A DNA stretch of 64,000 bases from a virus. The translations under genes and the position numbers were made by a program. Positions 6,437 through 59,553 of this stretch are shown here, one piece after another. The stretch spans positions 1 through 64,000 of IMG/VR virus record IMGVR_UViG_3300029711_000003; one strand, written 5' to 3'. Numbering within the stretch: the first letter of the stretch is position 1; the number at the start of each line of letters is the position of its first letter. Below the pieces are notes generated by a model that saw only the letters and a program-made list of their open reading frames with translations, was not told where the DNA came from and searched no databases.

Positions 6437-6439
6437 TTT

Positions 6440-23501: not shown

Positions 23502-24998
23502 ATGAACGAAAGATTGACAATCAACTTGGCTGATTATGGCTTTGCCTCTCAGCAAGATGGTTTCCGCGCTGGAATGGAAAGTTCTGAAACCGTTGACCAG
23601 CTTAACAAAGCGTTGGCTGCGGAACAGATTACTGGCCGTGAAACCACAGACCTGACTACTGCGTCGGGTGCTCCGTTGAAAGTTGAGTCTTTGGAGAAAA
23701 CTCTGAAGCACCTTACTTTCCGTGAGCAAGACATTCGGTTGTGGAAGGATATTCCGAAGAAACCTGCCTACAACACCGTTGAAGAGTACAACCAGCAAGT
23801 AAGCTACGGTGCACACCGTGGAGGTTGGAATAGAGAAGGTGAGCTGCCTGAAGAGGAAGACAGCGTATTTGTACGCAGGGCTCAGTTGGTGAAATACCTT
23901 GGTGTAACCAAGAGTGTAACTCACCAGATGACCCTTGTAAATACGATGATTGGTTCTGTGATGGAGCGCACTATCAAGGACGGTACGTTGTGGATTTTGC
24001 GTGCTCTGAACGAAGGCTTGTACTTCGGTGATGAGAAGATTGTTCCTGAACAGTTCAACGGTTTCATTGCTCAGCAGAAGGGTTCTGACTCTTGGGCATC
24101 TTACGCTGAATATATGGACAGTGAGCATGTTATTGATTTGCGTGGCTCTGCTTTGACTGAGGACGCTATCGAAACTGCTGCAAACACTATCGTAGAAAAC
24201 TACGGTTTAGGTACTCAGATTTATGGACCACCCGCAGTTCTTTCCAACTTTGTTAAGAACTTCTATGGCAATAAGTTCGTTGTGCCCAATACTCCGAGCT
24301 TGTCTGACGGTATTATGGGTCAGCGTGTTCAGGCATTTGACTCTCAGTTCGGTCGTATCGGTTTGAATCACGATGTGTTCTTCAAGAAGCTGCCGTCAAA
24401 GACTGCATCTTCAGCTGCCACTTCTCAAAAAGCTCCGACAAAACCGACTTGGGACGGTTCAACGCCTGCTACGGTTCAATCTACTATTGCTGGAAGCAAG
24501 TGGGGTAGCACGGATGCTGGTAACGTGTACTACGCTGTAACGGCAATCAACCGTTTCGGTGAGTCTGATTTGGCTGTTTACGATACTGCCGTAGCTGCAA
24601 CTGCTGGTTCTGCCATTGACCTCAAGTTCGCTGATGGAGGCGGTGTTAACAAAGCAACAGCCTATCGCATTTACCGTACTAAGGTTGGTGGAACTGCAGC
24701 TGGCCCATTCTATCCGTTGTTTGAGGTATCGGTTGATGACCTGACCCGTGGTTATGACGGTGGTTCTCCTGGAATTATCCGTGATATGAATCGGTACTTG
24801 CCCGATACTGACCAGAGCATTCTGTTCCAGTTCGACAACGAAGTTATTGAGTTCTCTCAGTTGGCTCCGTTGATGAAGATGGATTTGGCTGTTCTTTCTC
24901 CTGCTTTCCGTTTCATGATTTTGCTGTACGGTACTCCGTTCTTGTATGCGCCGAAGAAGATGGTACGCTTCATCAATATCGGAAAGACAATTCAGTAA
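23502..24998 (+). CDS. major capsid protein
   Basis: 498 aa. Immediately follows protease/scaffold and is followed by a strong terminator. The call is by synteny and size. Confidence 0.7.
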   Translation: MNERLTINLADYGFASQQDGFRAGMESSETVDQLNKALAAEQITGRETTDLTTASGAPLKVESLEKTLKHLTFREQDIRLWKDIPKKPAYNTVEEYNQQVSYGAHRGGWNREGELPEEEDSVFVRRAQLVKYLGVTKSVTHQMTLVNTMIGSVMERTIKDGTLWILRALNEGLYFGDEKIVPEQFNGFIAQQKGSDSWASYAEYMDSEHVIDLRGSALTEDAIETAANTIVENYGLGTQIYGPPAVLSNFVKNFYGNKFVVPNTPSLSDGIMGQRVQAFDSQFGRIGLNHDVFFKKLPSKTASSAATSQKAPTKPTWDGSTPATVQSTIAGSKWGSTDAGNVYYAVTAINRFGESDLAVYDTAVAATAGSAIDLKFADGGGVNKATAYRIYRTKVGGTAAGPFYPLFEVSVDDLTRGYDGGSPGIIRDMNRYLPDTDQSILFQFDNEVIEFSQLAPLMKMDLAVLSPAFRFMILLYGTPFLYAPKKMVRFINIGKTIQ

Positions 24999-28724: not shown

Positions 28725-30344
28725 ATGGCAACAGTAGTCAATTTTCACGGAAAGAACTACATTGAACCAGGTTCATATGCTGCTACAGTTTACAATCCTA
28801 CTTCGGTAGTCAACGTTGCTGAATTTGGCAACGTCATGATTATTGATACTGGATTGTCTATGAACGGCTCATATGAATTTGCTGGCGGTTCGGGTGTTCA
28901 TGGCGAGCTTGCTCAAGGGCTGAAATCAGTTTATGAGTTTGAGAACTATGAAGACTTTCTGTCATTCATGGGCGGTGGTTTTGTTGGCGATTTAGCCGAG
29001 AAAATTTTTACTCCGCTTACAGGTTCGGCTGGTGCTCCTAAACTGTATTATGCACGAGCAGCGACAACAAAGTGTGCAACTCTTACTCTTACTATTTCAA
29101 GCGGTAATACTTTGATATTGAAATGTAAGAATGAAGGTATTGCCGGCAATGGAGTTAAGGTAGGAGAAGTTTTGAAAGTAGGTTATGGAGCACAGATTGT
29201 AGCAGGAGATACTGCCGATACATTCAAACTCCAAGTTTATCGTGGCTCATATATGGGTACTGATGATGCAGGTGAATCATATGGAGCTTACTCTTTGGAT
29301 GATGCTCAGCCAAACCTTATTGCCGAGTCAGATGATTTTACAACTCTTCAAGAGCTTTATGATTGGGCGTCATCTAACCGATACATGCTTGCTAACTTTG
29401 TTGTAAGTATGGAGGGTAGCGGAGAAACCGAGCTTGTTGCTGTCGAAATGGCATTAGCAACTGGAGGTACAACTCAGTATTTGAGCGGTACGGAGTATGA
29501 CGACATCTTGGAAGCTATTGATGAGCTTGATGTTACTTTCTTCTTGTGCACTAACTTGAACGCCGCCAGCGGTAGGGGTGTTGATGCAGCAACAAACGGT
29601 AAACTATTTACATTCTTGAAACAGGATGCTAAGTTCACCGAGTTTATGGTTGTTCCAGGTGGTCAGGATGATACCGATTTACTTGGTGAAGCAAACAGTT
29701 CTCAGGCAATTGCTAAGTATTTCAACAGTGGTCAGGTAGTAGTCGTTCACGGTTCACCTATCGTTGACCGCAAGGACGGTAATGGTACGAAACAGTTGCC
29801 CACGATTTACCTTGCCGCTGATATTATAGGATTAAATGCTGGTATGGCGGCTCAAACTCCTTTGACGTTCAAGCGAGTTGGTTATCAATCATTCGCTTAT
29901 GACCTCAAAAAGCGAGAAAGAGAGAAGGCACTGCAGGCAGGTATCTTACATGTACGCAACGTATCGGGGTATTGGTGCGTAAACCAAGGTGTTACGACTT
30001 TGCAGGCTAACAAGAAAACTATTGCTGATGATGGTCAGTCGTTTGAGTTGTCTGTTGAGTTAATCAAGGCTCAGCTGAACAAAGAGCTTATTTTGGAAGG
30101 TCAAACGAGATTCACTGGTCAGACCGCTGCACAGGCTTCACCTGAAGCAGTGAAGAACTTCACCGAAACCAAACTTGACTCTTTGGTTGCTTCTACGGGT
30201 AATGATAACCTGCTTATCAGTTGGCAGAATGTCAAAGTATCTGCTAAAAATGGCGATTATTTCATCACCTACGATTTTGTTCCAAATGTACCTGTGAACA
30301 AGACGTTCTTTGTTGGTAACATTTTAGATTTCACTTTTAATTGA
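28725..30344 (+). CDS. tail sheath protein
   Basis: 539 aa. Lies upstream of the tube, chaperone and tape measure genes. Has the N-terminal IEPGSYA and C-terminal GILHVRNVSGYWCVNQGVTTL patterns typical of sheath proteins. Confidence 0.6.
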   Translation: MATVVNFHGKNYIEPGSYAATVYNPTSVVNVAEFGNVMIIDTGLSMNGSYEFAGGSGVHGELAQGLKSVYEFENYEDFLSFMGGGFVGDLAEKIFTPLTGSAGAPKLYYARAATTKCATLTLTISSGNTLILKCKNEGIAGNGVKVGEVLKVGYGAQIVAGDTADTFKLQVYRGSYMGTDDAGESYGAYSLDDAQPNLIAESDDFTTLQELYDWASSNRYMLANFVVSMEGSGETELVAVEMALATGGTTQYLSGTEYDDILEAIDELDVTFFLCTNLNAASGRGVDAATNGKLFTFLKQDAKFTEFMVVPGGQDDTDLLGEANSSQAIAKYFNSGQVVVVHGSPIVDRKDGNGTKQLPTIYLAADIIGLNAGMAAQTPLTFKRVGYQSFAYDLKKREREKALQAGILHVRNVSGYWCVNQGVTTLQANKKTIADDGQSFELSVELIKAQLNKELILEGQTRFTGQTAAQASPEAVKNFTETKLDSLVASTGNDNLLISWQNVKVSAKNGDYFITYDFVPNVPVNKTFFVGNILDFTFN

Positions 30345-38629: not shown

Positions 38630-39530
38630 TGATATTGTAAGTGACTTTGAAAATATAACCAAGTTTGCCTTGTTAGACTACTTGGAACAATATAGGGATT
38701 TCATGCAAAATGATTTCTCCTATATTTCTTCATATTACAACGGAGATACGGCAAGTGTTGATTCATCTTATATTTCCAATTTCAATTCTTTGAGGACTAA
38801 GAGCAAAACACTGATGCAGCAGTTCATAAACTTTTCTCACCGATTATCGAATTGCGGTTTTTGGGAGCTTCAGGAGTATTGTCAAGACCTTAATGATACT
38901 TTGGAAAAGATAACCAAATTGCCTAAGTATTACAGAACATCTAAGACGGTAAGAGGTTATCAGCCGTATATACAAGTCAAGGGAAACATTGGCGGTATGA
39001 AAACCGTTAAGGATTTAGCCGAAGAAATAAGTTCCAATGGTGTTAGCGAAATAAGTCTTATCATTGATAATGACCTTCAGGAGAAAGATTGGGAAATTGA
39101 CCAATTGTCTGCCGTTACTGCCTTTGTAAATAATCAGGTGGACGTAGTAGTTGAAACAATTCTTGAACAGCCTGTAGGCAATCAAATTTATGGTAAGGAT
39201 ATTGCTCGCAAGATAACACTGGAAGACAATGATATTGCCGTTAAGAAATATGAAGACAACGTTGAACAAAAATGTGATATTCTATTAGAGCTTGAGCGTG
39301 GTAACATTCCTGAAATGCCTGCGTTTGGTAAAAATCCGCTTCAAGGTACCAATATGGCTAATTACAATTATGCTGAATTGGTAAAGGACTTGCAGAGCGT
39401 ATTTCTTCAGGATGATTTGTTTGAATCAATAGAAGTTACAAACGTTGAATTCAAAGATGGCGACTTGTATGTCACTTGTTCTATTCAAACCAAGTATTCG
39501 TATTCAACTGTAAAAACATTAAGATTATGA
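38622..39530 (+). CDS. baseplate wedge protein with C-terminal gp25/gpW-like domain
   Basis: The C-terminal ...GNIPEMPAFGKNPLQG...ELVKDLQSVFLQDDLFESIEVTNVEFKDGDLYVTCSIQTK fits the GPW/gp25 pattern. Confidence 0.5.
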   Translation: MFSDIVSDFENITKFALLDYLEQYRDFMQNDFSYISSYYNGDTASVDSSYISNFNSLRTKSKTLMQQFINFSHRLSNCGFWELQEYCQDLNDTLEKITKLPKYYRTSKTVRGYQPYIQVKGNIGGMKTVKDLAEEISSNGVSEISLIIDNDLQEKDWEIDQLSAVTAFVNNQVDVVVETILEQPVGNQIYGKDIARKITLEDNDIAVKKYEDNVEQKCDILLELERGNIPEMPAFGKNPLQGTNMANYNYAELVKDLQSVFLQDDLFESIEVTNVEFKDGDLYVTCSIQTKYSYSTVKTLRL

Positions 39531-40723
39531 TAACGAAAATAACATCAGTAGATGAATTGAAGCAAATATGGTTGGAGATATTTCTCAACAAAACCGATAA
39601 GGTGAGTGACGTTTCGGATGAGTCAGTTTTGAACGGTATTGCATACGGATGCGGAAAACTTGCTCAAAGAACATTGGCTAATCAAGCTATCATTGAAGGT
39701 CATATCTTTCCTGATACTGCTTATGGAGATTATCTTGACCAGTTAGCTGCTATTCGTGGCGTAGCTCCGAGATTTGGTGCAACGGCAAGCTCAACTTATG
39801 TTAGAGTGATTGCTGATGCTGGAACGTCTTATTTAGCAGGAACACATCAGTTTACTTCTACTTCGGGAATTGTATTTGTACCCGAAAAGAGCGTGACGGT
39901 TGGTGAAAATGGATATGCTTATGTTAAGGTAAGAAGTTTGCAGAGCGGATTGTCTGCTAATGTAGATGCACTTTCCATAAACCAAGTGTCTCCAATTCCT
40001 GAGGGTCATATAAATTGTACAAATGAGTATGCTGCAACTGGAGGTCGTGACCAAGAAGATGATGAACTGTTCCGACAGAGGATAAAAGAAAGTATAAATC
40101 AATTGTCAAGAACAACGCTGTCTTATCTTGAGCAAGTTTTCATGAAAATCAATAACAATGTTTTAAGGCTGTTCAAAGGTAGTACGGACGAAAGCGGACG
40201 TTTGAATTTGATTGTAGTTTCAGTAAACGGACAAGATTTCACGGAAGATGAGTTCAATGAAATTCTCAGCCGTTCTGAAGAATATCTTTCTTTGTCCGAG
40301 CTTTTGAGAACTTCTACAGATTATGCTTTGAAGCTCAATAATGTTGACTGGCTTACAGTTGACGTTGAGTTCCGAGTAGATTTTGACCCTGCTTATGACC
40401 AAGACGAAATTCGCAAGAACATACAGATTCAAATGTCAAAACTTTTTGACTATCGTTTTTGGCAATATGGTGATAAGGTAGAATGGGAAAATTTGTTGTA
40501 TGCCGCTAAGAATGTTGAGGGTGTTAGATACGTGCCTGATACACACTTTTCTCCGCACGCTGATATAAATGTACCGAAATATCAATTGCCACGCATTAGA
40601 GGATTTGTATTGAGAGATTTGGATGGCAATATCATAGAAGACAATGGCGGCGTATTGAGTGAGTTCTATTATCCCAATGAGCCTGATGATTCATTTTCAA
40701 GTTCTGTTTTAATGACTATTTGA
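39527..40723 (+). CDS. baseplate J-like (gp6-like) protein
   Basis: VLNGIAYGCGKLAQRTLANQAIIEGHIFPDTAYGDYLDQLAAIRGVAPRFGATASSTYVRV fits the Baseplate_J pattern. I prefer the ATGA-overlap start at 39527 over the track start at 39476. Confidence 0.65.
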   Translation: MITKITSVDELKQIWLEIFLNKTDKVSDVSDESVLNGIAYGCGKLAQRTLANQAIIEGHIFPDTAYGDYLDQLAAIRGVAPRFGATASSTYVRVIADAGTSYLAGTHQFTSTSGIVFVPEKSVTVGENGYAYVKVRSLQSGLSANVDALSINQVSPIPEGHINCTNEYAATGGRDQEDDELFRQRIKESINQLSRTTLSYLEQVFMKINNNVLRLFKGSTDESGRLNLIVVSVNGQDFTEDEFNEILSRSEEYLSLSELLRTSTDYALKLNNVDWLTVDVEFRVDFDPAYDQDEIRKNIQIQMSKLFDYRFWQYGDKVEWENLLYAAKNVEGVRYVPDTHFSPHADINVPKYQLPRIRGFVLRDLDGNIIEDNGGVLSEFYYPNEPDDSFSSSVLMTI

Positions 40724-40724: not shown

Positions 40725-41030
40725 ATGAGAACGGAAGTAAGTGTAAAAACGACAACCGAAGTTGACACCAAAACTGGCGATTTTCTTATAAGTTGTTTTG
40801 CTGATATGAACGAAGATGGGTCAAAAACTCCTTCTATTTACAAGTCAGATGTTTTAGACAGTACTAAGATAATTGACAATGTTTCGGGAAAAGAGGGAGA
40901 ATTGATGTTGACCTATTCGGGAGATACGGTTGGTGAAATCAACGATGACGGTGAACTGGTAATAAATCCTGACGGTGATGACGTCAATAAGTACAATAAA
41001 CAAGATGAAAACTTGATATATGAAGGATAG
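40725..41030 (+). CDS. hypothetical baseplate/fibre-module protein
   Basis: 101 aa, ORF track. Confidence 0.4.
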   Translation: MRTEVSVKTTTEVDTKTGDFLISCFADMNEDGSKTPSIYKSDVLDSTKIIDNVSGKEGELMLTYSGDTVGEINDDGELVINPDGDDVNKYNKQDENLIYEG

Positions 41031-42705
41031 TATATTACAAGCAATAGGTGATGTTCTTATCATTGATGTTGTTCCTAAGATAAACGGACGTATCCAATTC
41101 ACGGAGTATTCGGACGTATGGGAAGGAATAACAGATGAAAGGACGGTGAACAAAGAGTTCCGTGTTTCAGCAGACGGAGTTTTTTGGAGTAATTGGTTGG
41201 CTTTAACAAATGAAAATCTTGCCAACGGTCAATTCGTTGCCAACGGTCAATTCACCATCCAACTCCGATTTACCCGTACTGGTACAGATGAAACTGGAGT
41301 AATAGAGTTCAAAACAATAGACTTCTATGGGTCAAGGGAGGAAATTCAATTTGTCGCTCCTACCTTGTCTTCCAGTATATTCGCTGATATTGTTGGTACA
41401 GACGGTTTACGTCAATTGGAAGAAAATTTATTCAAGAAGCTGTATTACAGAGGCATTTTGCCCGATTACATAATCAGAGCTGCTAATTCAGATGCTGAAG
41501 AAGATGCTGACTTTATTGATGTGTTTTATAGCGTGGCACGTTTCTTCGCTATAATGATACGTTTCTTCACGAGATTTGAAAATTTCAAAGACGATTTTGA
41601 TTTGATGCGTGAAAACGTAAGACAATATGGCTTGTACTTTGATGAATCAAATATCACTCTGGAAGAGCTTCAATTTCTTTCTCAGCATCTGTTCGATGAG
41701 ATACGAAAGAGAGGAACAGTGATGATATTTAAGCGTCAGGGTGACGTTGTAAATGGTCAACCGCTGCCCATAGATGGAGAATTTATAAGACTTCTAAGAA
41801 GTAAGCCGAGCGATGAGTTGTTGTATGAGAATGTTCCGTTGTATAAGGTAGGTTGGTGTCTTGGACAATGTTCTCCTATGTATCGTGGCACTTCTCAAGC
41901 CTACTATTTGAACAAGACTAAGGAAAACACAGAAGATTTTGTTGATATCAATAACTTCATTATAACTAATAGCGGCAGAGGAAATTATGAGTTGCAGACA
42001 TTCAACAATAAAAAGGTTTTGCGACTTTTCCAAACAACTACTTCAAACACCACTGTCGGTTTAGGTCGTGTGAACGAAGATACGGAGGTATCAATTGATG
42101 ATTTAATTGTAGTTGATTCACGTTTAGATTATGAAATAACATTCGCTTTCCAAGTAGTTGGTAGTGGTTCTTCAAATAACAAATTACTGTTTGGAGTAGA
42201 AGGATTTGACATTTTAGGCAATAGGTTGAACGATGCTTTCATAACTCCTAATGGTGACCAAATATCGGAAACTTTTGTTTTGGAAAGTTTGTCTAAATGG
42301 AAAAGGAACAATTGGTATTATGCCAGAGGAATTTTGCACGCTTATTCATCTGTTAACATGGATGAAAATCTTACAAATTTAGGATTTGGCACCAATTTGT
42401 ATTTCAACAATTCATTTGTTAAATACATTCTGCCCAAGATACAGATAAGCGGAACAGCTACATTTGACGTGAAGATTTGGGACTACAAAGTAAGACCGCT
42501 GGTAAGAGGAACGAACATATTGCCGTTAAAAAGCGGTGAGGAAAATTCTCATAGTCTTGGTTTCATACAAAGCCAAAGGATATTCTACAGCTATGTTAGA
42601 AACAACAATAATAGTCAAAGCAAGGATGAAATAACAGATATTATAGAAAAGTATTTGTTACCATATAACACAACAGATATATTTGTTTTCATGAGTAATT
42701 ATTAA
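41020..42705 (+). CDS. putative baseplate/tail fibre protein
   Basis: 561 aa. By synteny. Confidence 0.45.
   Translation: MKDSILQAIGDVLIIDVVPKINGRIQFTEYSDVWEGITDERTVNKEFRVSADGVFWSNWLALTNENLANGQFVANGQFTIQLRFTRTGTDETGVIEFKTIDFYGSREEIQFVAPTLSSSIFADIVGTDGLRQLEENLFKKLYYRGILPDYIIRAANSDAEEDADFIDVFYSVARFFAIMIRFFTRFENFKDDFDLMRENVRQYGLYFDESNITLEELQFLSQHLFDEIRKRGTVMIFKRQGDVVNGQPLPIDGEFIRLLRSKPSDELLYENVPLYKVGWCLGQCSPMYRGTSQAYYLNKTKENTEDFVDINNFIITNSGRGNYELQTFNNKKVLRLFQTTTSNTTVGLGRVNEDTEVSIDDLIVVDSRLDYEITFAFQVVGSGSSNNKLLFGVEGFDILGNRLNDAFITPNGDQISETFVLESLSKWKRNNWYYARGILHAYSSVNMDENLTNLGFGTNLYFNNSFVKYILPKIQISGTATFDVKIWDYKVRPLVRGTNILPLKSGEENSHSLGFIQSQRIFYSYVRNNNNSQSKDEITDIIEKYLLPYNTTDIFVFMSNY
41221..41256 (+). 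repeat. 18-bp in-frame tandem duplication (ANGQFV-ANGQFT)
   Basis: GCCAACGGTCAATTCGTT followed by GCCAACGGTCAATTCACC. Confidence 0.9.
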
Positions 42706-42717
42706 AAGCGTAAAAAT

Positions 42718-44166
42718 ATGTCAAGATTGAAATTTAGTTCCAATCTTTTTCTTGAGGTTAATGAGCTGCAACGGTTCAACAAATTCTTGGAAGAAGATGG
42801 ATGGAAAAGAGCAATGAAGGCAATATCAAAGAACTTCGGTATTGTTGAAAATGCGTCAAATTCCTACTTCAAAGTAACCGCACGTTCAGGTAGCAATTCG
42901 GTGATTGTAATCAATGCAGGTATTGCCTTTGATAGCAATATGGATGCTATCGTAATGACGGATGACTTGGAATTGTCGGTAGGAAATACTGGTTCAAACC
43001 GTTGGGTCATCTTATCAAGAGCCGTAACCAATGAAGAACAAGGAACTGTTAGCATCAATTCGGACGGTTCACTTTCAGGCATTGGAACTGAATTCACTAA
43101 GGTATTGAGAGGCCAACCCAATTTTCCTGTTAAGGTTAAATTCAACTCAACGAGCAATAACGGAGAATATGAAGTTGTTTCAGTTACTTCTGATACTTCG
43201 GCACTACTTTCGGGGTCATTCGTAAATCAAAGCAATATAAAGTATTCGGTTGTTGGAACATTCACACCTGGCTTCCAACCTACTGAAGATAACAAAATGA
43301 TTTATGAATATGACTCTTATAACATAGAGGTTGTTGATTCAGAGGATAGACCAGCTGTATCGGAAGATGAATTCATTCTTGCTATGATATCATTTGACGT
43401 CAGTGGTTCAATGAATGTTTCGGATGAAAGAATAAGATATATGTTTAACAATCCTTACACTCAATCCGATGAATCAGACAATTCTACTGACCCATTGGTA
43501 AGTTTATTGAGTACTGGGGTTGTTGGAGGTATTCATGCTGTAGGTAGTGCCGCCGCAGAATTTGAATTGATTATGGAACACGGATATACGGTAACAAGAC
43601 ATGAGTTGATTACCACTTCCACTTCCAATACTTTCAACATCATTAGTGGACAAAGTAATTTCTTGGGCACTGGTAACATTCCTGACGGTATGTTCAGAGG
43701 ATGGCTGCTTGTAAACCGAGCTAATATGAAGTATGCTTTGATTGATGACAATAGCAATAAGTCTTTGTACATTTCCAATCTTGATACTTCTATTATATTG
43801 GATAGCGTAAATGATTTCATCATTGTTCCTAATTGCAATGAAATTGAATATGAAGTTACAGTATCTAACAATGTTGACCATCCAAACATACCTTTCTATT
43901 TCAGAAGTTCTATTTGGAATTTATACACAAGAGCTAAGGTACATGCTTTTTATCCGAGCAATGACGTAGATAATTTTGACAATCAAGTCACTATAACCAT
44001 CAAATACCGTCTTATGGACAATAGCGGTAATCAACAGCCTTTTAGCAATCTTGCTATTGCTCAATTTGAAAACGTCAACGGACAGACAGAAACTCTTTCC
44101 GAAAGCTCATTTGTCGTTGACCTTACTACCATTGAACCTGAAGCTAAACAACGTAATTATTCTTGA
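42718..44166 (+). CDS. putative tail fibre protein
   Basis: 482 aa. By synteny. Confidence 0.45.
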   Translation: MSRLKFSSNLFLEVNELQRFNKFLEEDGWKRAMKAISKNFGIVENASNSYFKVTARSGSNSVIVINAGIAFDSNMDAIVMTDDLELSVGNTGSNRWVILSRAVTNEEQGTVSINSDGSLSGIGTEFTKVLRGQPNFPVKVKFNSTSNNGEYEVVSVTSDTSALLSGSFVNQSNIKYSVVGTFTPGFQPTEDNKMIYEYDSYNIEVVDSEDRPAVSEDEFILAMISFDVSGSMNVSDERIRYMFNNPYTQSDESDNSTDPLVSLLSTGVVGGIHAVGSAAAEFELIMEHGYTVTRHELITTSTSNTFNIISGQSNFLGTGNIPDGMFRGWLLVNRANMKYALIDDNSNKSLYISNLDTSIILDSVNDFIIVPNCNEIEYEVTVSNNVDHPNIPFYFRSSIWNLYTRAKVHAFYPSNDVDNFDNQVTITIKYRLMDNSGNQQPFSNLAIAQFENVNGQTETLSESSFVVDLTTIEPEAKQRNYS

Positions 44167-44167
44167 T

Positions 44168-45022
44168 ATGTTACTATATTTAACAGGTGCAAGCACCTCA
44201 TTAGTTAAAAGTGAGGACAATCCTCAAACAGATGCAAGTAAGAGCTTGGGTGGATATATTTCTTCCACTCCAGCTCCCAACGCTGCTTTGAATAGTTTGT
44301 TTGATATGATTTCTTCTTATACTTTGGAGAAGAAGCAAAAAGAAACTATTGCGCTTGGTTTGATTAACCAATTAGAAACAGCCGTAAAGAACGTTGAATT
44401 GAAAATAGTAACGGACGTTGATAACGTAGCTACATTCAAAGTAGCAGCCGTTGCTGTTAGTTCAGACAACTATCGGATGGAAAGTATTTCAAGCCGTTAT
44501 CAGGAGCCTATGGCGGCTGAATTTCATGATGCTTCATTTTACAGAGCTTGCGTTGATTTAGAGGTTACTCAATACGCTGGTAAGGATGAAGAAATAGCAC
44601 TTTATCCATTTGGCATTTCTTTCGTTGTTCAGGAAGAAGGATGGGAAGGAACATGGAAGGCTTTTGAAGAGGCATTTTCCAATGACGAAACATACGAGAT
44701 AAGGCGAATATCTAAAAAGAAATATAGGATTGGCAGGCGTGACGAAAAATTATTGGAAAAACCACTTAAATGTTTTTACATAACCACTGAAGGTTTTAAG
44801 GCAGAATTTTTAGGCGAATTATCCAATGAATCTGACAATACGGTATTGATTTCTGAAAGACTGGAGCCGAAAGAAGCAATTGGATTATGGATTCAAAGAG
44901 ATATAAAAGACTCATCAATTTCCAGTAATGAACAATTACTTGAAGATTACAAACATCATGTCATTAAGGAAACTGTTGAGGATGTAGAAATTGTTGTAAG
45001 CTACGATTTAGGAGAGCCGTGA
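44168..45022 (+). CDS. putative fibre-module protein
   Basis: I prefer the ATG at 44168, 1 nt after the upstream stop. It gives MLLYLTGASTSLVKSEDNPQTDASKSLGGYISS.... The track start at 44051 is a TTG inside the upstream gene. Confidence 0.45.
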   Translation: MLLYLTGASTSLVKSEDNPQTDASKSLGGYISSTPAPNAALNSLFDMISSYTLEKKQKETIALGLINQLETAVKNVELKIVTDVDNVATFKVAAVAVSSDNYRMESISSRYQEPMAAEFHDASFYRACVDLEVTQYAGKDEEIALYPFGISFVVQEEGWEGTWKAFEEAFSNDETYEIRRISKKKYRIGRRDEKLLEKPLKCFYITTEGFKAEFLGELSNESDNTVLISERLEPKEAIGLWIQRDIKDSSISSNEQLLEDYKHHVIKETVEDVEIVVSYDLGEP

Positions 45023-45106
45023 AATAAAACTCCAGATATAGACATAATTGAATGAGGTAAAACTTATTCAAAGCAAATTAAATGTTAAACTTAAATTATT
45101 AAAATT

Positions 45107-45316
45107 ATGGACGAAAATGTCGGTAAGATTTATTGCTTGGACAGAGGCAATGATGATGCGTTAGCAGCTGCTATTTTAGCAAATGGTAATAGACGTGATT
45201 ATGACCCGATGACTGCGGCGGCTCTGCTGAAGCAGACTCAGAGACTTCTGAACGCTTATCGTAATGGTTGCGGCTGTGGATGTAACGATGGTTGCGGAAA
45301 CGGCTGCGGTTGCTAA
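45107..45316 (+). CDS. 69-aa peptide ending in Cys-Gly repeat GCGCGCNDGCGNGCGC
   Basis: ORF track. Structured-looking N-terminal ~52 aa, then 7 Cys in the last 16 residues. First gene of a two-gene unit closed by a terminator. Confidence 0.5.
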   Translation: MDENVGKIYCLDRGNDDALAAAILANGNRRDYDPMTAAALLKQTQRLLNAYRNGCGCGCNDGCGNGCGC

Positions 45317-45334
45317 TTAAAGGAGGGCACTACT

Positions 45335-45760
45335 ATGGCAGTATATTTATCACCCGTGGGATTATCATCTGCGCCAGTAGCAAACCAAGTTTCTTTGTCA
45401 GCAACTTTCAAAGAACGTCTTTGTCGTAGAATTTGCGAAAATTCAACAAATCAACCTGAAGCATTCGTAACTTATAAGACTGGTACTCCAATCTTTAATG
45501 GAACGACTGTTTTCGTACCTGTTATTGCTACTGTAACAATAGTAACGCCAGGATGCGGTTGTAAAGCTACAACTCAGGTTATTGTTGAAGAGTTTATGGC
45601 TACATTTCAAGGACAAACTGGATTGCCTACAAATGTTTCACTATCAGCTGAGGGACAAACTCAACGGTTGGCTAATGTTTCTTGCGGCAGTTCTAACTGT
45701 TTGGCGATTTACAGCTCATTGACTGTAACTATTACACCTGCTACAACGGCAGCTGCTTGA
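45335..45760 (+). CDS. Thr/Val-rich beta-type protein with internal GCGC
   Basis: 141 aa. Preceded by AAGGAGGG 7 nt from the ATG, the strongest SD-like sequence I noticed in the window. Contains TPGCGCKATT and NVSCGSSNC. Confidence 0.55.
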   Translation: MAVYLSPVGLSSAPVANQVSLSATFKERLCRRICENSTNQPEAFVTYKTGTPIFNGTTVFVPVIATVTIVTPGCGCKATTQVIVEEFMATFQGQTGLPTNVSLSAEGQTQRLANVSCGSSNCLAIYSSLTVTITPATTAAA

Positions 45761-45773
45761 GTTAGTTAATTTG

Positions 45774-45815
45774 GGGCAGAAGGTAGATTTTTACAGTTTA
45801 TCTTCTGCCCTTTTG
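45774..45815 (+). terminator. rho-independent terminator
   Basis: Perfect 9-bp stem GGGCAGAAG / CTTCTGCCC, 19-nt loop, TTTTG tail. Confidence 0.7.
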
Positions 45816-45842
45816 TATAAACAATTAAATAAATGAATCGTT

Positions 45843-46349
45843 ATGTTACAGTTCAAAGACATTAAGCAAAACTCAAATGTTTACATTCTTGATAAGAATA
45901 CAGTTGAGATAACGACAGGAAAGATAAGCTCAGCTTCATTTCCAAAGCTGGAATACAATCCGCAAACTGGTCAACAACAGATGATGATAACATTCGGTAT
46001 CGAAGCCGATGGTAAATCACCCACTTATTCGATACCTGAATCAGCGTCAGTAGTTACGGCTGGCGATTTGATAATTGCTACAGAAAAGTCAGGTTTGTTG
46101 CATGATATTGAAATACTCAATAACACATCAGACCAATTCTTGACTAATGTTGACAATCTCATCGAACACCACAAAATGGTTAAGGAGAAAGCAACGGCAT
46201 TACTGTCTGACCTCAATCCAGTTTACAAAGAGAAACAGGAAACGGAAAAGAGGTTCAATAGCATTGAAGACAGATTCAATAAGTTTGAGAAGAAAGTGGA
46301 CGGCATGAGCCAAATGCTTGAGAATTTCATTAAAAAGATGGAGAGCTAA
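45843..46349 (+). CDS. hypothetical protein
   Basis: 168 aa, ORF track. Confidence 0.45.
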   Translation: MLQFKDIKQNSNVYILDKNTVEITTGKISSASFPKLEYNPQTGQQQMMITFGIEADGKSPTYSIPESASVVTAGDLIIATEKSGLLHDIEILNNTSDQFLTNVDNLIEHHKMVKEKATALLSDLNPVYKEKQETEKRFNSIEDRFNKFEKKVDGMSQMLENFIKKMES

Positions 46350-46352
46350 GTT

Positions 46353-46886
46353 ATGGGAAAGAAAAGATTTATCATATTCCAGTGCTCTCAACACACTGAA
46401 GATAAGGTAGGAAACGAGCCAGTTCACGTTCACGGAGAAGTAACCTCATCAGGCAAAACTCACGATATTGAATTTACACTACCATATGAACAATCGGCAA
46501 ATGCCCTGATGTCCGCAAAGGGATATGTCGAATATGTTAAGAAACATGGATACCATTTTACTGAAAAACTTGCGGAACACGTCAGTAAGATGCTGTATAA
46601 TAAGATACCGCAGCTCCAATACATACCCGAAAGTCAAATATCGGATTTGATTGAAGCTAATAAAATCAATCTAAATAAAAAGGCAACATTAGGCGACATG
46701 ATATATGCTACTAATGTTGCTTATTCTACTTTCTATCCAGACCTGTTAAAAGATATGAAGGCATGCCTTATTCATGCCCACAAGATGGTTAATTCAGTGA
46801 ATGGATACGATGGTTCAGTATTTTGTCGCTGGACTGCTGACGCTATTGGTAAAGCGATAAAGATTGATTGGGAAAAATTTATATAA
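46353..46886 (+). CDS. hypothetical protein
   Basis: 177 aa, ORF track. Confidence 0.45.
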   Translation: MGKKRFIIFQCSQHTEDKVGNEPVHVHGEVTSSGKTHDIEFTLPYEQSANALMSAKGYVEYVKKHGYHFTEKLAEHVSKMLYNKIPQLQYIPESQISDLIEANKINLNKKATLGDMIYATNVAYSTFYPDLLKDMKACLIHAHKMVNSVNGYDGSVFCRWTADAIGKAIKIDWEKFI

Positions 46887-46898
46887 AAGAGGTGAGTT

Positions 46899-47585
46899 AT
46901 GGCAGGATATGATGATACATATAATATGATAATAAGCACGCTGATGGGGCGTCCAAACGGTACGGAGATTCAACCTGAAAACCATCAAGCGTTTGCTCTC
47001 AATATGCTGGAATATATACGGAGCTTGGAATTGCTTGCTAACGCACCTTTCATTGGCGTGGCTACACCTACTACACAACCCGTACAGCCCGATGATTCCC
47101 GTGCTTGCTATATAGCAGGAGTTGCCCAAGACCGCACAACTACCTTTCAGAACTTTCGTGATATGAACGGCAACCCCATTTCTATTACTAATGGGGAAAT
47201 GGAAGCGTGTTTAGTTATATTTGTTTGGAATGCTCAATATTGGAGTGCTGAAACAGTACCTACGAACATTATAAGTTCCGCTGACCAAGCGTACTTCTTC
47301 TACAACTTGACTATCCGAAAGACTTATGACAGCGTGTCGGATATGAATGCTGACGTATCAGCTCCAGTAGGTAATGACGGAAAATACATTAAGGTAGGAG
47401 AGATTGTTTCAGTTCATAATGAAGATGACCCGACTGAGGACGCTATATACAGTTGGGAAGAAGGTCCAAGATGGCAATTACAAATGAAATTATCTGCACT
47501 TGATAGCCGAGTATTTGACGGAGGTCGTGCGGATAGTAAGTATGGAGGAGCAAGAAACATCGATTGCGGCACAGCTCAGGTATAA
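46899..47585 (+). CDS. hypothetical protein
   Basis: 228 aa, ORF track. Confidence 0.45.
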   Translation: MAGYDDTYNMIISTLMGRPNGTEIQPENHQAFALNMLEYIRSLELLANAPFIGVATPTTQPVQPDDSRACYIAGVAQDRTTTFQNFRDMNGNPISITNGEMEACLVIFVWNAQYWSAETVPTNIISSADQAYFFYNLTIRKTYDSVSDMNADVSAPVGNDGKYIKVGEIVSVHNEDDPTEDAIYSWEEGPRWQLQMKLSALDSRVFDGGRADSKYGGARNIDCGTAQV

Positions 47586-47615
47586 GCTGAGACAGGGCTT
47601 ATTCAAGGTTGGGAA

Positions 47616-47664
47616 GAAGGAAATGATGTCAAAATGTATTGATGTTCATTTCCTTCTTTTTTTT
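47616..47664 (+). terminator. rho-independent terminator
   Basis: Perfect 11-bp stem GAAGGAAATGA / TCATTTCCTTC followed by T8. Confidence 0.8.
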
Positions 47665-47670
47665 ACTTAT

Positions 47671-47679
47671 CAGTTATTA
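47671..47679 (+). promoter_or_regulatory. conserved CAGTTATTA element (candidate phage promoter core)
   Basis: Lies 7 nt after the terminator T-tract and 36 nt upstream of the fibre ATG. Confidence 0.4.
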
Positions 47680-47706
47680 TAAAACAAAACATTTAATATT
47701 AACATT

Positions 47707-50493
47707 ATGGCAGACAGAATTCAACAAAGGCGGGACACCGCCGCAAGATGGAAGCAATACAATCCCATATTGCTTGAAGGTGAGGTAGGGTATGTGACCG
47801 ATAACCCTAACCAGTATAAAATTGGCGATGGTGTTCATACTTGGAATGAACTACCGCTACGTGGATTTGACGGAATACTTGTTCATGAGCTTGGAAACAG
47901 TCAGACAGCAGCAATGAGTCAACAAGGAGTTAGTTATTCATTGCTTTTTCTTTTAAGAAGGGACGTATATTTTTCAGAATATTTTATTAATTCAAACCCT
48001 TCTTGGTTTTTAAACATAGGAGAAAAAATTGAAAAGTTTTCTCCATCATTATTTACAAAATTGTCTGATTATAAATCAAGCGAAGAACCACCTTTGGTTA
48101 ATTATACAACATATGTAATAAAGAATGACACTACAGACATTTTTTATGTGTATGTTAATTTTCGTTCTGATGCAAGATATTCTGACAACTTTAAATATTT
48201 AAAAGTTGCAATTTTTGATGAAAATGATAATAATACTGCAAATTCTTATGAAGATGGGAGTTTATTGCTTGGAGTTTATCCTAAAAATACTCTTGTTATA
48301 TCTGGCAATACTTGGGTATCGGAGCCAAGAAGAATATTATTACAAAACCTGATTTATGATTACTCTTATGATTCATATATTGAAAAAAATAAGAATAGCA
48401 TTGGTAATTATGTAGAATCATATGAAAAAGTTAACCTATTAAGTAATTATTTGATAACACAAAAAGAGGCAAACTGTTTTACAGAAGGTCATAGACTAAA
48501 GGTATTGGTAAAATGGGATGCTAATGTGGACATTGGAAATTATGCCTACATTACACAAGATATTGCTCCAAATTTTGATTTTAATTATAACTATCACTGG
48601 GAAATATATAATAAGGGGGATTATCCTATAACTATTAACATAGGGTTAACAAAAGGTGTTCATGATTGGAGTGAAGGGTACATCTTTAAAAAAGAATCGG
48701 TGGTAATAAACCCAGGAGAGAAATTCTCATTTACAGCGAATAAATATGATATTGTTAAGAGTTATTATGACCTTAATGGTAGAGATAGAGGAAACATTTA
48801 TGACCTTAATTTGCAATATACTTATATGCACACAGTATTGTATGGAGATACTGGAGCAAATACTGATATTTTTTCTCATTCTGGCAATATAGAAGTATCA
48901 ATGTATTATACAATAAACAATGATATATATGAGACAAATACTGAAAATTCAAGAAATTCAGGTTGGTTAGTAGGTGGATTGCCTAAAAATGCAATATTTA
49001 GGGATGAAAATCCGAACAATAAAGATTCATTTACTAAGGATGCTATGTCTGTAATACAGATTGATTACAGAACAATAAAACTTATAACTAATATAACTTC
49101 AAGTGTTATGGGTTCTGTTTATAGGGGAATTTATTGGAGAATTTATTATAACAATCTTGAAGATTTGAAAGGAATATGGAGGCTTACAAGTAAGTATAAC
49201 AAATATGACAATTGTCATATTCATTGGAATATATGTGATTGGAGTCCTAATGAACATGACGTTATAGATATAGATAACCCAGAAGGAGCATATAAAGATT
49301 ATGATTTATATTCTTTAATTACAAATTATAAGAGTGTGCATTCAGAAGATGGAAAGTGGACAGGAATACTTGAGAATCAGGGATTTTTATATATATCATT
49401 TCTGAATTATAATAAAGATGGATATTTTTCAGAATTTGAAGATATATTAACATTAGATTTCTTACCAAATGATTCAAAGGTTATTGCTTCAGAGTTCACT
49501 CCGCAAGCAGAAGAAAGAATTTTACAAATATCTCAAGATGGAACTGCTAACAAAACATTGATTACAAATTGGGGTGATAGTCTAACAGCTGGAGCAGGTT
49601 CATCAAATCATGATAACCAATCAATAGTATTATCAGCAATTAGAGATAAAGGTTATCCTGATTTAAGTCTATCAGATACCCAAGATATTACATATAGTAT
49701 AATGATGCAAGCACTTCTTGGTGATGACTATAATGTTATGAATTGTGGCGTAGGAGGAGAAAATATCAATACTATTGCGGCAAGACAAGGAGCAACCTAT
49801 TTGATTACTACAAATGACTTTACTCTTCCATCTGATACAACTCCCATACAAATAGGAGATTACACAACAAGATTAATGACTCCATGGGGAAGACAGGCAT
49901 CCCCTTTACTACAGGGGGATGGAAACTCTGTCAATCCATGTTATGTAGAGGGAATAGAATGTACACTTAAATGGACTGGAACATCTTGGTCAGATAGTAA
50001 TGGAACATATACTATTCAAAGGGTTGCTACTGGCGATAGAGAAATAAAATTTTCAAATAAAACGCCAATTATATTATACGGTTCTCAATTAAGTTCAAAT
50101 GCAAAAATAGCAGTATTATGGTGCTGGCAGAATGGAGGGTATAATGATGATAATGACTTGATTGAAAAGTTAGATAAAATGATTTCTACTTTACAAACAA
50201 ATAAATATCTCATAATAGGACTTCATTCAGGAGATACCTCAACAAGAGAAACGCAAGAAAATGCTTTATCTTCTAAATATGGCGGAAAGTTCTTTAATTG
50301 GAGGCAATATATTTCAACAAATGGAATGTATGATTTTGGCTTAACTCCTACTGAAGAAGATTTAACTGCAATGTCTAAAGGTGAATGTCCTAAATCTTTA
50401 CTGAAAGATAATGTTCATCTTAAAGCAGCTGGATATGCAATACTTGGATTCAAGATAATTGAGAGGTTCAAGGCTTTGGGATATGTTTCTTGA
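47707..50493 (+). CDS. tail fibre/spike with Mtd_N-like N-terminus and C-terminal SGNH/GDSL esterase domain
   Basis: The N-terminus RRDTAARWKQYNPILLEGEVGYVTDNPNQYKIGDGVHTWNELP is the widespread fibre/hyaluronidase N-terminal motif. The C-terminus has GDSLTAG (block I), GGYND (block III) and DNVHL (block V). Confidence 0.7.
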   Translation: MADRIQQRRDTAARWKQYNPILLEGEVGYVTDNPNQYKIGDGVHTWNELPLRGFDGILVHELGNSQTAAMSQQGVSYSLLFLLRRDVYFSEYFINSNPSWFLNIGEKIEKFSPSLFTKLSDYKSSEEPPLVNYTTYVIKNDTTDIFYVYVNFRSDARYSDNFKYLKVAIFDENDNNTANSYEDGSLLLGVYPKNTLVISGNTWVSEPRRILLQNLIYDYSYDSYIEKNKNSIGNYVESYEKVNLLSNYLITQKEANCFTEGHRLKVLVKWDANVDIGNYAYITQDIAPNFDFNYNYHWEIYNKGDYPITINIGLTKGVHDWSEGYIFKKESVVINPGEKFSFTANKYDIVKSYYDLNGRDRGNIYDLNLQYTYMHTVLYGDTGANTDIFSHSGNIEVSMYYTINNDIYETNTENSRNSGWLVGGLPKNAIFRDENPNNKDSFTKDAMSVIQIDYRTIKLITNITSSVMGSVYRGIYWRIYYNNLEDLKGIWRLTSKYNKYDNCHIHWNICDWSPNEHDVIDIDNPEGAYKDYDLYSLITNYKSVHSEDGKWTGILENQGFLYISFLNYNKDGYFSEFEDILTLDFLPNDSKVIASEFTPQAEERILQISQDGTANKTLITNWGDSLTAGAGSSNHDNQSIVLSAIRDKGYPDLSLSDTQDITYSIMMQALLGDDYNVMNCGVGGENINTIAARQGATYLITTNDFTLPSDTTPIQIGDYTTRLMTPWGRQASPLLQGDGNSVNPCYVEGIECTLKWTGTSWSDSNGTYTIQRVATGDREIKFSNKTPIILYGSQLSSNAKIAVLWCWQNGGYNDDNDLIEKLDKMISTLQTNKYLIIGLHSGDTSTRETQENALSSKYGGKFFNWRQYISTNGMYDFGLTPTEEDLTAMSKGECPKSLLKDNVHLKAAGYAILGFKIIERFKALGYVS

Positions 50494-58353: not shown

Positions 58354-59553
58354 ATGGAAAATATTGATTTCAAAAATGTGTTTATTCCGCCACTTGGCGT
58401 AATTTCAACTTCACAATTCAGTGAGATGTATCCTGTGGTTAATGACTATATTCTCAATGAAATGAAGTTTGAGGATAGCAGGGATGGAAAGGTAAAGGAA
58501 ATGCTTGATATTAAAACAATGTTAAGCAATCCGTATCGTAGATGCGTAGGCGGTTATCGAAGAAACATAAATGTGTTCTTTTTGCTTGCTGAAGCTATGT
58601 GGATTGTTTTAGGCAGGAAAGATGTTGAGACATTAGTCAATTTCAATAACAATATGAAAAACTTTTCCGATGATGGTGAAACATTTCACGCTCCTTATGG
58701 TTTTCGTTTGCGCCATTGGGGTATAAGGACAGAGGATAAGTTTGAGGAAGGAGTTAATACTGCTCAAGGTTCAGACCAAGTTTTGAATGCTATCAAACTT
58801 TTGACGGAAAATCCTAACACCCGTCAAGTTGTTATGTCTATTTGGAATCCAAACTTTGATTTAGGATTCAAAACAAAAGACATACCTTGTAATGATATGG
58901 TGATGTTAAAGATAAGGAACGGAAAGCTGATAACAACGGTTCAAAATCGTAGCAACGACTTGCATTGGGGTTTGCCTACGAACATATTCCAGTTCTCATT
59001 CCTCACCGAAGTTATGGCGGCTTGTTTAGGTATAGAGCTTGGCACTCAAACTCATAATTCTCAGAGCCTACATATATATGAGTGGAATGATGTTGCTAAT
59101 GTTATGGATGAAGAATATAAGAAAATCGGAAACGGTTTTGATTTGTATCATTGGGCTCATGAGAAGCATATGGATTTCAACTTCAATCACGAAGTTCCTG
59201 CTAACCGTTTCCGTGAGATTGAATACAATTTTTCGGTTATTATCGAAAATCTGAATAAAGTTGCTAAGGGAGAGAGTGAGAACAACGATGAAATCCAAGC
59301 ATTAGCAATGTTTTCTAATTATCTGTATAACTCTTATCTGTTATTGAAGATTTATTTGGATTACAAGCATGATATTAAGTCTGCTAAGACGGATGAGGAA
59401 AAGGATGTTGCCCGTTTGAAGGCAATTTCAGATATTGAATTGATAGAAATTGAGAACAAGTTACAAGGATGGGACATTTCAGTTCTTGCTAAGAATTTCT
59501 TTGCCGCAAGGTTACACAATAAGGTAGAACATGAATACATTGGTAAGTTATGA
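58354..59553 (+). CDS. divergent ThyA-family enzyme (thymidylate synthase or dUMP hydroxymethylase) with ~130-aa C-terminal extension
   Basis: APYGFRLRHWG, DQVLNAIKLLTENPNTRQVVMSIWNP, catalytic IPCND, NRSNDLHWGLPTNIFQF and SLHIYEWN align with the ThyA core motifs. Asn in LPTN is the uracil-type specificity residue; dCMP hydroxymethylases have Asp there. Confidence 0.7.
   Translation: MENIDFKNVFIPPLGVISTSQFSEMYPVVNDYILNEMKFEDSRDGKVKEMLDIKTMLSNPYRRCVGGYRRNINVFFLLAEAMWIVLGRKDVETLVNFNNNMKNFSDDGETFHAPYGFRLRHWGIRTEDKFEEGVNTAQGSDQVLNAIKLLTENPNTRQVVMSIWNPNFDLGFKTKDIPCNDMVMLKIRNGKLITTVQNRSNDLHWGLPTNIFQFSFLTEVMAACLGIELGTQTHNSQSLHIYEWNDVANVMDEEYKKIGNGFDLYHWAHEKHMDFNFNHEVPANRFREIEYNFSVIIENLNKVAKGESENNDEIQALAMFSNYLYNSYLLLKIYLDYKHDIKSAKTDEEKDVARLKAISDIELIEIENKLQGWDISVLAKNFFAARLHNKVEHEYIGKL

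Follow-up and report, generated by a model that had tools for sequence, protein, structure and literature searches.

A 69-residue cysteine-rich reading frame in a gut phage genome appears to be a deletion remnant of a protein from a portable four-gene module

Introduction

We examined a pair of adjacent genes in a 64,000-nucleotide stretch of viral DNA, positions 1 to 64,000 of the IMG/VR record IMGVR_UViG_3300029711_000003 (hereafter, the window). The first open reading frame (ORF), ORF-A', encodes 69 amino acids (aa) and ends in cysteines that alternate with glycines; the second, ORF-B, encodes 141 aa. ORF-A' appears to be an in-frame deletion remnant of a conserved phage protein of about 293 aa (protein A), rather than a peptide gene. 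Family A is catalogued (as phrog_16490) but uncharacterised, and ORF-A' is a new, truncated member of it. The closest described relatives are the A homologues of crAss-like phages. These share the layout of intact A (an N-terminal part, a glycine-flanked hydrophobic segment, a helical region with CCC motifs, and a cysteine-rich tail) and its gene order, in which A is followed by B and then by a third gene, C. Relative to these homologues, the window copy is without residues 41–263. In GenBank, crAss-like homologues are labelled “spike protein/glycoprotein” or “outer capsid protein/viral fiber” (cr116_1, QOR59421.1; cr1_1, QOR58550.1; cr4_1, YP_010112546.1; and cr125_1, YP_010113184.1), apparently because of automatic coiled-coil matches.

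Several better-known phage proteins can be compared with intact A. The i-spanins of phages lambda (Rz) and P2 (LysB) have a single membrane segment ahead of a long helical domain that carries conserved cysteines, a layout also predicted for A, and they too are encoded beside holin and endolysin genes. A differs from the i-spanins in having some 50 residues ahead of its hydrophobic segment, twice the length, no lipoprotein partner, and no sequence similarity to them. Spanins can be dispensable under some conditions. The lysis-inhibition system of phage T4 (holin T and the antiholins RI and RIII) combines a single-pass membrane protein that has a large extramembrane domain with small soluble partners, as is predicted for A; however, there is no homology, and A is predicted, if anything, to be oriented the other way round. 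The accessory lysis-timing genes of T4 are readily lost (r mutants).

Head fibres are another point of comparison. Like the proteins encoded with A, the head fibres of PhicrAss001 and gp8.5 of phage phi29 are small accessory proteins, and the gene for PhicrAss001 gp29 lies inside the lysis cassette. In PhicrAss001, gp29 forms dimeric and gp21 trimeric head fibres, which are thought to be dispensable and specific to certain groups (PMC10172136). PhicrAss001 was not among the tblastn matches for A or B, and its gp27–gp31 look unrelated by eye. Also, the C-terminal domain of gp29 is Ig-like, whereas the model of B is a long-stranded beta meander without a match.

Finally, two kinds of short cysteine-rich proteins resemble the tail. 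Metallothioneins and the CxC sites of metallochaperones have similarly dense C-x-C motifs, but the tail of A sits on a large protein. The precursors of azole-containing peptides (McbA and the heterocycloanthracins) have a Gly/Cys-rich C-terminal stretch like that of ORF-A', but we found neither a leader-plus-core gene nor cyclodehydratase or dehydrogenase genes, and the parent of ORF-A' is a 293-aa protein.

Results

A deletion allele of a conserved phage protein

The two genes and their signals are arranged as follows in the window:

45107..45316, + strand: ORF-A', ATG start, 69 aa; probable in-frame deletion allele of a cysteine-rich protein of about 293 aa (family A, phrog_16490)
45221..45226, + strand: putative deletion junction, a 6-nucleotide microhomology (GCTCTG) within an imperfect in-phase 21-nucleotide repeat (16/21; ALFNQNQ / ALLKQTQ)
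45266..45313, + strand: conserved C-terminal Cys-Gly tail (GCGCGCNDGCGNGCGC); a comparable tail is present in 117 of the best 120 full-length homologues
45320..45327, + strand: Shine-Dalgarno-like sequence AAGGAGGG, 7 nucleotides before the ATG of ORF-B
45335..45760, + strand: ORF-B, intact 141-aa partner protein, predicted to be all-beta, with six conserved cysteines
45773..45811, + strand: intrinsic terminator closing the A'-B unit, with a 17-pair stem, a 5-nucleotide loop, and then a T run

Seven of the last 16 residues of ORF-A', at its C-terminus GCGCGCNDGCGNGCGC, are cysteines, and an 18-nucleotide spacer separates its stop codon from ORF-B, whose sequence includes TPGCGCKATT and NVSCGSSNC. 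An initial annotation, made from the sequence alone, had reported the ORF pair, the tail, the spacer, AAGGAGGG with its 7-nucleotide spacing, and the terminator, and we located all of them as it described. It had also called the Shine-Dalgarno-like sequence the strongest that it noticed in a genome whose genes mostly lack one. A Shine-Dalgarno core of at least 5 nucleotides is present at just 2 of the window's 55 gene starts, which makes this one unusual. The sequence is kept in the closest group of relatives (with read-throughs LREGTT / LKGGHYYG) but not in all relatives: the L063-type group is without it. Relatives that lack B have hairpins at the same place, 3' of A.

ORF-A' can be split into two parts, each of which matches one end of a 293-aa protein, P0145, its intact counterpart. 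The first part is identical to residues 1–40 of P0145, and the second corresponds to residues 264–293 with one glycine missing. What had been described as a 69-aa peptide with an ordinary 52-aa N-terminal region therefore reads as the first 40 residues of a larger protein joined to its last 30 or so. When we searched metagenomic proteins with ORF-A', we obtained 24 matches, which have the N-terminus in common and then diverge: some extend into the long protein, some reach the Cys-Gly tail at other junctions, and some run into an out-of-frame ORF-B or the next gene. In 31 IMG/VR loci that we fetched through ORF-B, the gene upstream of B normally encodes 287–300 aa. Compared to the closest full-length locus (L022/L056), the window lacks 669 nucleotides, or 223 codons; L022, at 92–95% nucleotide identity, aligns to the window as two blocks with the 669 nucleotides between them. 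We read the junction by setting the window against both flanks, left and right, of the intact gene. A microhomology-mediated deletion of these 223 codons would have fused residue 40 to the last 30 or so residues and removed the hydrophobic segment along with the helical core.

The lost part, residues 41–263 of P0145, contains the protein's only hydrophobic segment and its whole predicted helical, CCC-bearing core, so that of the full architecture of family A, just the N-terminal 40 residues and the tail are left. The natural stop codon 18 nucleotides before B, the Shine-Dalgarno-like sequence, and the terminator are retained. Because the putative anchor and the core are gone, ORF-A' is probably a loss-of-function allele; its reading frame may have been kept for the expression of B or for mechanistic reasons.

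This allele is real and viable. The exact 69-aa product is encoded on 6–7 independent contigs of 50–200 kb, one of them 100,557 bp long, so ORF-A' is not an assembly artefact. It is a minority form, and intact A is the common state: the cluster of P0145 (at least 90% identity) has 221 sequences, from contigs of 97–104 kb, which are named only “hypothetical protein.” Short ORFs of similar size are common in the AT-rich window, where ORFs of 40–60 aa are plentiful, and on length alone a 69-aa ORF is not above chance. Nevertheless, ORF-A' and ORF-B are real coding sequences because both have homologues, and both halves of ORF-A' are homologous to a large protein family. Also, a 6-nucleotide microhomology is far too short to cause a mis-join at the usual k-mer lengths of assemblers. 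We consider the chance that ORF-A' is a spurious ORF or a misassembly to be negligible.

The initial annotation had likened ORF-A' to the precursors of linear azole-containing or otherwise modified peptides, such as microcin B17 or the heterocycloanthracins, whose maturation enzymes would be encoded elsewhere. The composition of the last 16 residues, with cysteines alternating with glycines, is what speaks for this idea, which we think is very improbable. The ancestral and prevalent form is a protein of about 293 aa whose C-terminus happens to be the tail; there is no dedicated short precursor, as the homologues are 280–307 aa long and the short forms are scattered, independent deletion alleles. 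NCBIfam, which includes models for precursors of ribosomally synthesized and post-translationally modified peptides (RiPPs), gave no match. A search for YcaO or McbBCD-like genes had been proposed. We found no match to YcaO, E1-like, McbC-type, or other RiPP enzymes among the window's ORFs of at least 340 aa (smaller ORFs were not all scanned), nor any such maturation-enzyme family among the genes that were scanned or annotated around related loci. The likeness to metallothionein CxC clusters, which had also been proposed, stands at the level of the motif, since 7 cysteines in 16 residues is a family-wide trait, but not at the level of homology: ORF-A' has no metallothionein match in Pfam or NCBIfam at E values of 0.1–1 or below.

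The start of the gene also varies. Across from positions 45107–45140 of the window, L022 (at 5111) seems to have a small indel just 3' of the start codon. Judging from the translations, L022 starts at a downstream ATG in a shifted frame (MSVRFYCLDRG versus MDENVGKIYCLDRG). P0122 and P0134 have the L022-type N-terminus, and so the first 9 or so residues seem to be dispensable.

A deletion hot spot

To describe how often A is disrupted, we surveyed 73 loci that were retrieved through B and have at least 1 kb of upstream sequence. In 9 of the 73 loci, A was partly or wholly deleted or was replaced, and about six more have frameshifts or an in-frame TAG. Where a close reference allows the junction to be read, the microhomology is mostly 6–10 nucleotides and usually in phase. 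The deletions are:

In frame: window, 669 nucleotides; L050, 402; L057, 657; L098, 408; L043, 636; L030, 993 (an A::B fusion); L031, 1,224; L042 (judged to be in frame from its product)
Out of frame: L099, 646 nucleotides; L103, 722
Whole gene: L107, 903 nucleotides

In 8 of the 10 internal deletions, the reading frame continues into the tail or into B, as compared to an expectation of 1/3 (P ~ 0.003, binomial test). The events may not all be independent, however, and where similar peptide motifs supply in-phase microhomology, this alone would tend to yield in-frame products.

The other genes of the locus, which include a fourth gene (D), are affected as well. Our library of representatives contains in-frame chimeras of the types A::B, B::C, B::D, and A::B::D (proteins P0286, P0294, P0299, P0329, P0274, P0324, P0285, P0081, and P0371; loci L030 and L203, the latter being A::C). 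The hot spot for deletions is the whole four-gene module, not A alone, and the module is clearly dispensable. The motif GGNTGCGGTTG is repeated in the DNA for the tail of A (45266–45312) and for the GCGC of B (45551–45561), which is a ready microhomology for A::B deletions.

Three loci have an in-frame stop at the position of a Trp or Gln codon within an otherwise intact A (L045, at 3236; L082, at 3459; and L145, at about 2740); it is confirmed as TAG in L045 and L082. These could be nonsense mutations or TAG-to-Gln recoding of a late gene, so we did not count them firmly as inactivations. Such recoding is known in gut phages (PMC10136315), and in-frame stops of this kind are clear within A, C, and D of cr4_1, cr7_1, and cr125_1.

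Could the 69-aa product itself be functional, as a minimal protein in which the N-terminal part and the metallothionein-like tail bind B, and perhaps metal, and are kept by selection? The excess of in-frame deletions would fit this idea, as would the finding that at least three separate alleles join the N-terminus to the tail at different junctions (the window, P0121, and P0122), and the allele circulates on genomes of about 100 kb in several assemblies. Furthermore, the remaining codons have 11 synonymous and 2 non-synonymous differences from L022, for a ratio of non-synonymous to synonymous substitution rates (dN/dS) of 0.04, but this ratio cannot separate changes before the deletion from those after it, and most of the synonymous divergence is probably older than the deletion. 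The in-frame bias can be mechanistic, as the microhomologies are in-phase repeats of the motifs QAQ, QDN, and AL-x-x-Q-x-Q, or it can reflect selection only for undisturbed translation of B. Also, out-of-frame and whole-gene deletions persist (L099, L103, L107, P0124, and P0138–P0140), and intact alleles far outnumber deleted ones. Overall, a selected function for the 69-aa product seems unlikely. The remnant may persist only because B stays expressed when translation ends in frame 18 nucleotides ahead of it, or because B is still bound by the mini-protein.

The intact protein

With a full-length relative as the query, family A has 2,232 homologues, most of them 280–307 aa long. The initial annotation had proposed that a tail that is not conserved would indicate a chance ORF. 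As listed above, the tail is at the C-terminus of nearly all of the best full-length homologues, and it is found in distant crAss-like members as well. The only profile that matched the family was phrog_16490, with E values from 3e-39 to 2e-11 for full-length relatives and of 0.92 for the closest one (L022). The 69-aa ORF does not match phrog_16490, so the place of the window's clade in this family rests on transitive homology.

Intact A has four parts: an acidic N-terminal part of about 50 residues (net charge -3) with an invariant cysteine (Cys10); a single hydrophobic segment, flanked by glycines, at about residues 50–65; about 200 residues that are predicted to be helical and have two CCC motifs; and the C-terminal Cys-Gly tail. 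In the alignment, an invariant NNP-x-x-Y motif runs into the hydrophobic segment, which is the only one, and there are more conserved cysteines and an IQDLK motif that precedes the tail. The position of the hydrophobic segment is constant across all subfamilies of A, with Kyte-Doolittle values of up to 2.6; in distant subfamilies, it is strongly hydrophobic (e.g., GIFGILLLFILMGAF, and WWWIWIILLFFCW in cr125_1). Among 121 sequences, the flanks of the segment have on average 0.08 Lys or Arg residues on the N-terminal side versus 1.0 on the C-terminal side (one conserved Arg). By the positive-inside rule, this weakly favours a topology for A with the N-terminus out and the C-terminus in.

The AlphaFold2 (AF2) model of intact A has helices throughout, with a mean predicted local distance difference test (pLDDT) score of 42.6. 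This was unusable for a fold search, which we dropped. Sequence and profile searches of PDB with A returned only noise.

The partner protein and its link to the tail

ORF-B has 816 homologues among metagenomic proteins, nearly all of 130–141 aa, and many of these are on contigs of 50–100 kb; an exhaustive profile search gave 118 clusters at 50% identity. Six cysteines are invariant or almost so among the homologues. Compared to L022, dN/dS is 0.19 for B and 0.19 for C, which points to purifying selection on both genes. B is a real, conserved, and intact gene.

The AF2 model of B (pLDDT 88.8; predicted TM-score 0.79) is all-beta, with eight strands, five of which are 14–17 residues long. Foldseek searches with this model against PDB and BFVD found no significant match, and in sequence and profile searches of PDB we saw only noise (a hydrogenase, at E = 0.29). 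As modelled, B is a new fold with no structural relative in PDB or BFVD. We also considered an eight-stranded outer-membrane barrel and dropped it: the Foldseek matches to OmpX/Ail and to CapZ had TM-scores of at most 0.3, and B has no signal peptide.

To see if the tail and B occur together, we retrieved 80 loci through A, independently of B, and counted the A genes with enough downstream sequence. Of 72 A genes with the cysteine tail, 71 are followed by B, and the exception (L145) is an obvious deletion of B. Another six A genes, from at least two clades, have a Thr/Ala-rich end without cysteines (Dulem virus 42, cr7_1, L119, L121, L173, and L199), and none of these is followed by B; C is directly next. 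These counts favour a functional link of the Cys-Gly tail with B, and they bear out the earlier suggestion that the two ORFs belong together, as a true and conserved pair. Because the B of cr4_1 has zero cysteines, a shared disulfide or metal site that is built from the GCGC of B cannot be general. We asked whether the Thr/Ala-rich ends of the cysteine-less A proteins are leftovers of the C-terminus of B, from A::B deletion fusions, but their DNA has diverged too far for an answer. Two genes upstream of the cysteine-less A of cr7_1 (L115, 1391–2350) and beside a tail protein gene, there is a reverse-transcriptase gene, which may belong to a diversity-generating retroelement.

A portable module of gut Bacteroidales phages

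In the window, the pair is followed by two more genes:

45843..46349, + strand: module gene C, 168 aa, with a beta N-terminal part and a coiled-coil C-terminal part; matches phrog_28898
46353..46886, + strand: module gene D, 177 aa; DUF7841, PF25223, E = 4e-15

Neither ORF-A' nor ORF-B had a match in the Pfam, PHROG, NCBIfam, or PADLOC scans, and the sole match to PADLOC was a weak one for gene D (PDC-S15). Sequence and profile searches of PDB gave syntaxin-type coiled-coil noise for C and noise for D. C, which has 150–190 aa, is always 3' of B, or of A where B is absent, and the module copies of L001, cr1_1, L119, L204, and Dulem virus 42 encode a DUF7841 domain as well. Together, A, B, C, and D (the DUF7841 protein) are a portable module of gut Bacteroidales phages. 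We found it in at least five mutually unrelated phage backbones, which either infect Bacteroidales or co-occur with them; its carriers include the myovirus of the window, crAss-like podoviruses, phages of about 50 kb, and a contig from Phocaeicola. We compared seven genomic settings:

Phages of about 50 kb (L001): hypervariable tail-fibre gene, A, B, C, D, Phage_holin_4_1, Amidase_2
cr1_1: holin, coiled-coil transmembrane protein, D, A, B, C, one gene, DUF5675
cr4_1 and cr125_1: holin, (LysB-like), D, A, B, C
cr116_1: holin and L,D-carboxypeptidase about 1.2–2 kb upstream of the module, with three small genes intervening
Dulem virus 42: A, C, D, with DUF5675 and a holin two to three genes downstream
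Phocaeicola coprophilus An818 isolate contig: Amidase_3, DUF6808, A, B, C, D
Window: module between tail-fibre-type genes

Holin, endolysin, or LysB-like genes adjoin the module or lie near it in six of the seven settings, all but the window. This closeness to lysis genes is the strongest clue to function, but it is not decisive. In the window, recognisable tail-fibre-type sequence lies downstream of the pair, at 46899–47585 (by eye) and at 47707–50493 (Mtd_N and tail PHROGs). The genes upstream of the pair (41020–45022), which had been called fibre genes, have no match in Pfam or PHROG.

Among crAss-like genomes, matches to A and B were found in cr116_1, cr1_1, cr4_1, cr7_1, cr124_1, cr125_1, and others. 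The cr-series phages are Crassvirales podoviruses. We considered whether these matches mean that the phage of the window is itself crAss-like and rejected this, as its genes for a tail sheath, a baseplate, and an SPO1-type capsid identify a myovirus:

23502..24998: SPO1-type major capsid protein, 45% identical to that of the Bacteroides thetaiotaomicron myoviruses DAC16-23 and SJC03
28725..30344 and 39476..40723: tail sheath and baseplate wedge protein

The window is from a Bacteroidales myovirus of about 100 kb that has no close relative among GenBank phages; a megablast of positions 43000–48000 against these had no match. Because the A-B pair is present in both this myovirus and crAss-like podoviruses, it has moved between unrelated phage backbones.

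The isolate contig from Phocaeicola coprophilus An818 (L204; JACJJM010000005.1; 154,868 bp) has Amidase_3, DUF6808, and the module at 4371–8236, including an A of 289 aa with the cysteine tail. It gives a clue to the host and is a possible culturable source of the intact module. In the “phages” collection, no cultured phage with the module turned up, and literature searches on crAss spanins, crAss-like cysteine-rich lysis proteins, and DUF7841 found nothing on it.

The settings also bear on a structural role, in which the module encodes an accessory virion fibre, with A as an oligomeric coiled-coil shaft, B as a distal beta “knob” on the Cys-Gly tail, and C and D as fibre parts or chaperones; the fibre would be dispensable and would have been lost in the phage of the window. 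The module is 3' of a hypervariable tail-fibre gene in the phages of about 50 kb and is among fibre-type genes in the window. Frequent natural loss fits a dispensable fibre (gp8.5 of phi29 and stf of lambda are dispensable fibres), and the best, weak Foldseek matches of B are tailspikes. Also, gp29 of PhicrAss001 is a head fibre encoded in a lysis cassette, and the authors of that study expect uncharacterised analogues in other groups of crassviruses (PMC10172136). However, the tailspike matches have TM-scores of at most 0.3 and are not significant, and the “fiber” and “spike” labels on A in GenBank, which would otherwise favour a fibre, are unverified automatic annotations. Docking on the virion would fall to the N-terminal part of A, yet this part is conserved across a myovirus, podoviruses, and phages of about 50 kb, whose capsids and tails are unrelated. 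A conserved and very hydrophobic segment, such as WWWIWIILLFFCW of cr125_1, would be odd in a soluble fibre. Although several observations fit it, we view the fibre as a rather doubtful explanation.

Discussion

Taken as a whole, the best explanation of this locus, and in our view a likely one, is a circulating in-frame deletion allele of A beside an intact B, in a portable and dispensable module. What intact A does is a separate question, and our answer is tentative. We suggest, with somewhat less than even confidence, that it is an oligomeric helical protein, anchored in the inner membrane, that would assist envelope disruption or the timing of lysis in the late phase of infection, with B docking on or near its Cys-Gly tail. 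The N-out, C-in topology would place the tail in the cytoplasm along with B, C, and D, in which we saw no signal peptide by eye.

Several observations weigh against this role. FAYLIWMMFAG-R, the hydrophobic core in the clade of the window, is short, the argument for the topology hangs on one conserved Arg, and with so poor a model of A (see above), the helical or coiled-coil character is a prediction only. The tail is encoded 18 nucleotides from B, so that one deletion can take both, and their joint absence could be trivial. No holin or endolysin was recognised adjoining the module in the window, and no homology or fold ties A, B, C, or D to characterised lysis proteins. The N-termini of B, C, and D, as viewed by eye in the window and its relatives, have no lipobox or signal peptide, which argues against a canonical spanin pair, and the Suoliviridae already have a LysB-like candidate i-spanin adjoining the module. 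Finally, gp29 of PhicrAss001, encoded between the holin and the endolysin, is a dimeric head fibre (PMC10172136), so synteny with lysis genes does not exclude a structural role.

A broader proposal is more speculative, and we offer it as a doubtful idea: A, B, C, and the DUF7841 protein might be a hitherto unrecognised, horizontally mobile system of late genes in gut Bacteroidales phages, in which a beta-protein of a new fold, on the metallothionein-like tail of a membrane-anchored helical protein, would steer envelope disruption or lysis timing. Its repeated loss would then reflect a conditional cost, such as recognition by host abortive-infection systems or a trade-off like that of the rapid-lysis mutants of T4.

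The rest of the window has other features that deserve a brief description. At 941–3078 and 58354–59553, there are genes for a 5-hydroxymethyldeoxyuridine (5-hmdU) DNA kinase helical domain (PF18723, E = 1.6e-47), an adjacent FkbM-type methyltransferase, and a thymidylate-synthase-like protein (phrog_5131); together, these predicted functions suggest thymidine hypermodification in the phage's DNA. A 675-aa ORF at 11722–13749 has Hint or intein-splicing domains along with a DUF559 endonuclease domain and is an intein-containing gene; the PHROG matches of the host protein are only of unknown or head function. The 928-aa tail protein at 47707–50493 has the Mtd_N domain at its N-terminus, tail PHROG matches at its C-terminus, and a weak match to GDSL/SGNH esterases. 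At 35143–36702, a 519-aa protein with an M23-type peptidase domain at its N-terminus is probably a tail-associated lysin. An Rfam scan of the window found no RNA family.

For the window itself, our results correct an attractive, RiPP-like reading: in its place is a broken allele of a larger gene. The surrounding biology, with a mobile module, the co-occurrence of a tail and a partner, a partner of a new predicted fold, and frequent deletion, is more interesting than the peptide. Among the gene sets of human-gut Bacteroidales phages that are still uncharacterised, the module is one of the more widespread, as family A alone has over 2,000 clusters at 90% identity, and it combines three unusual traits: a conserved Cys-Gly tail, a partner without a structural relative, and a very high rate of natural deletion and in-frame fusion. 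The natural deletion series is a ready set of alleles, and Phocaeicola coprophilus An818 may be a culturable carrier. A mobile and dispensable module near lysis genes is a concrete handle on the poorly understood lysis or accessory virion functions of Bacteroidales phages.

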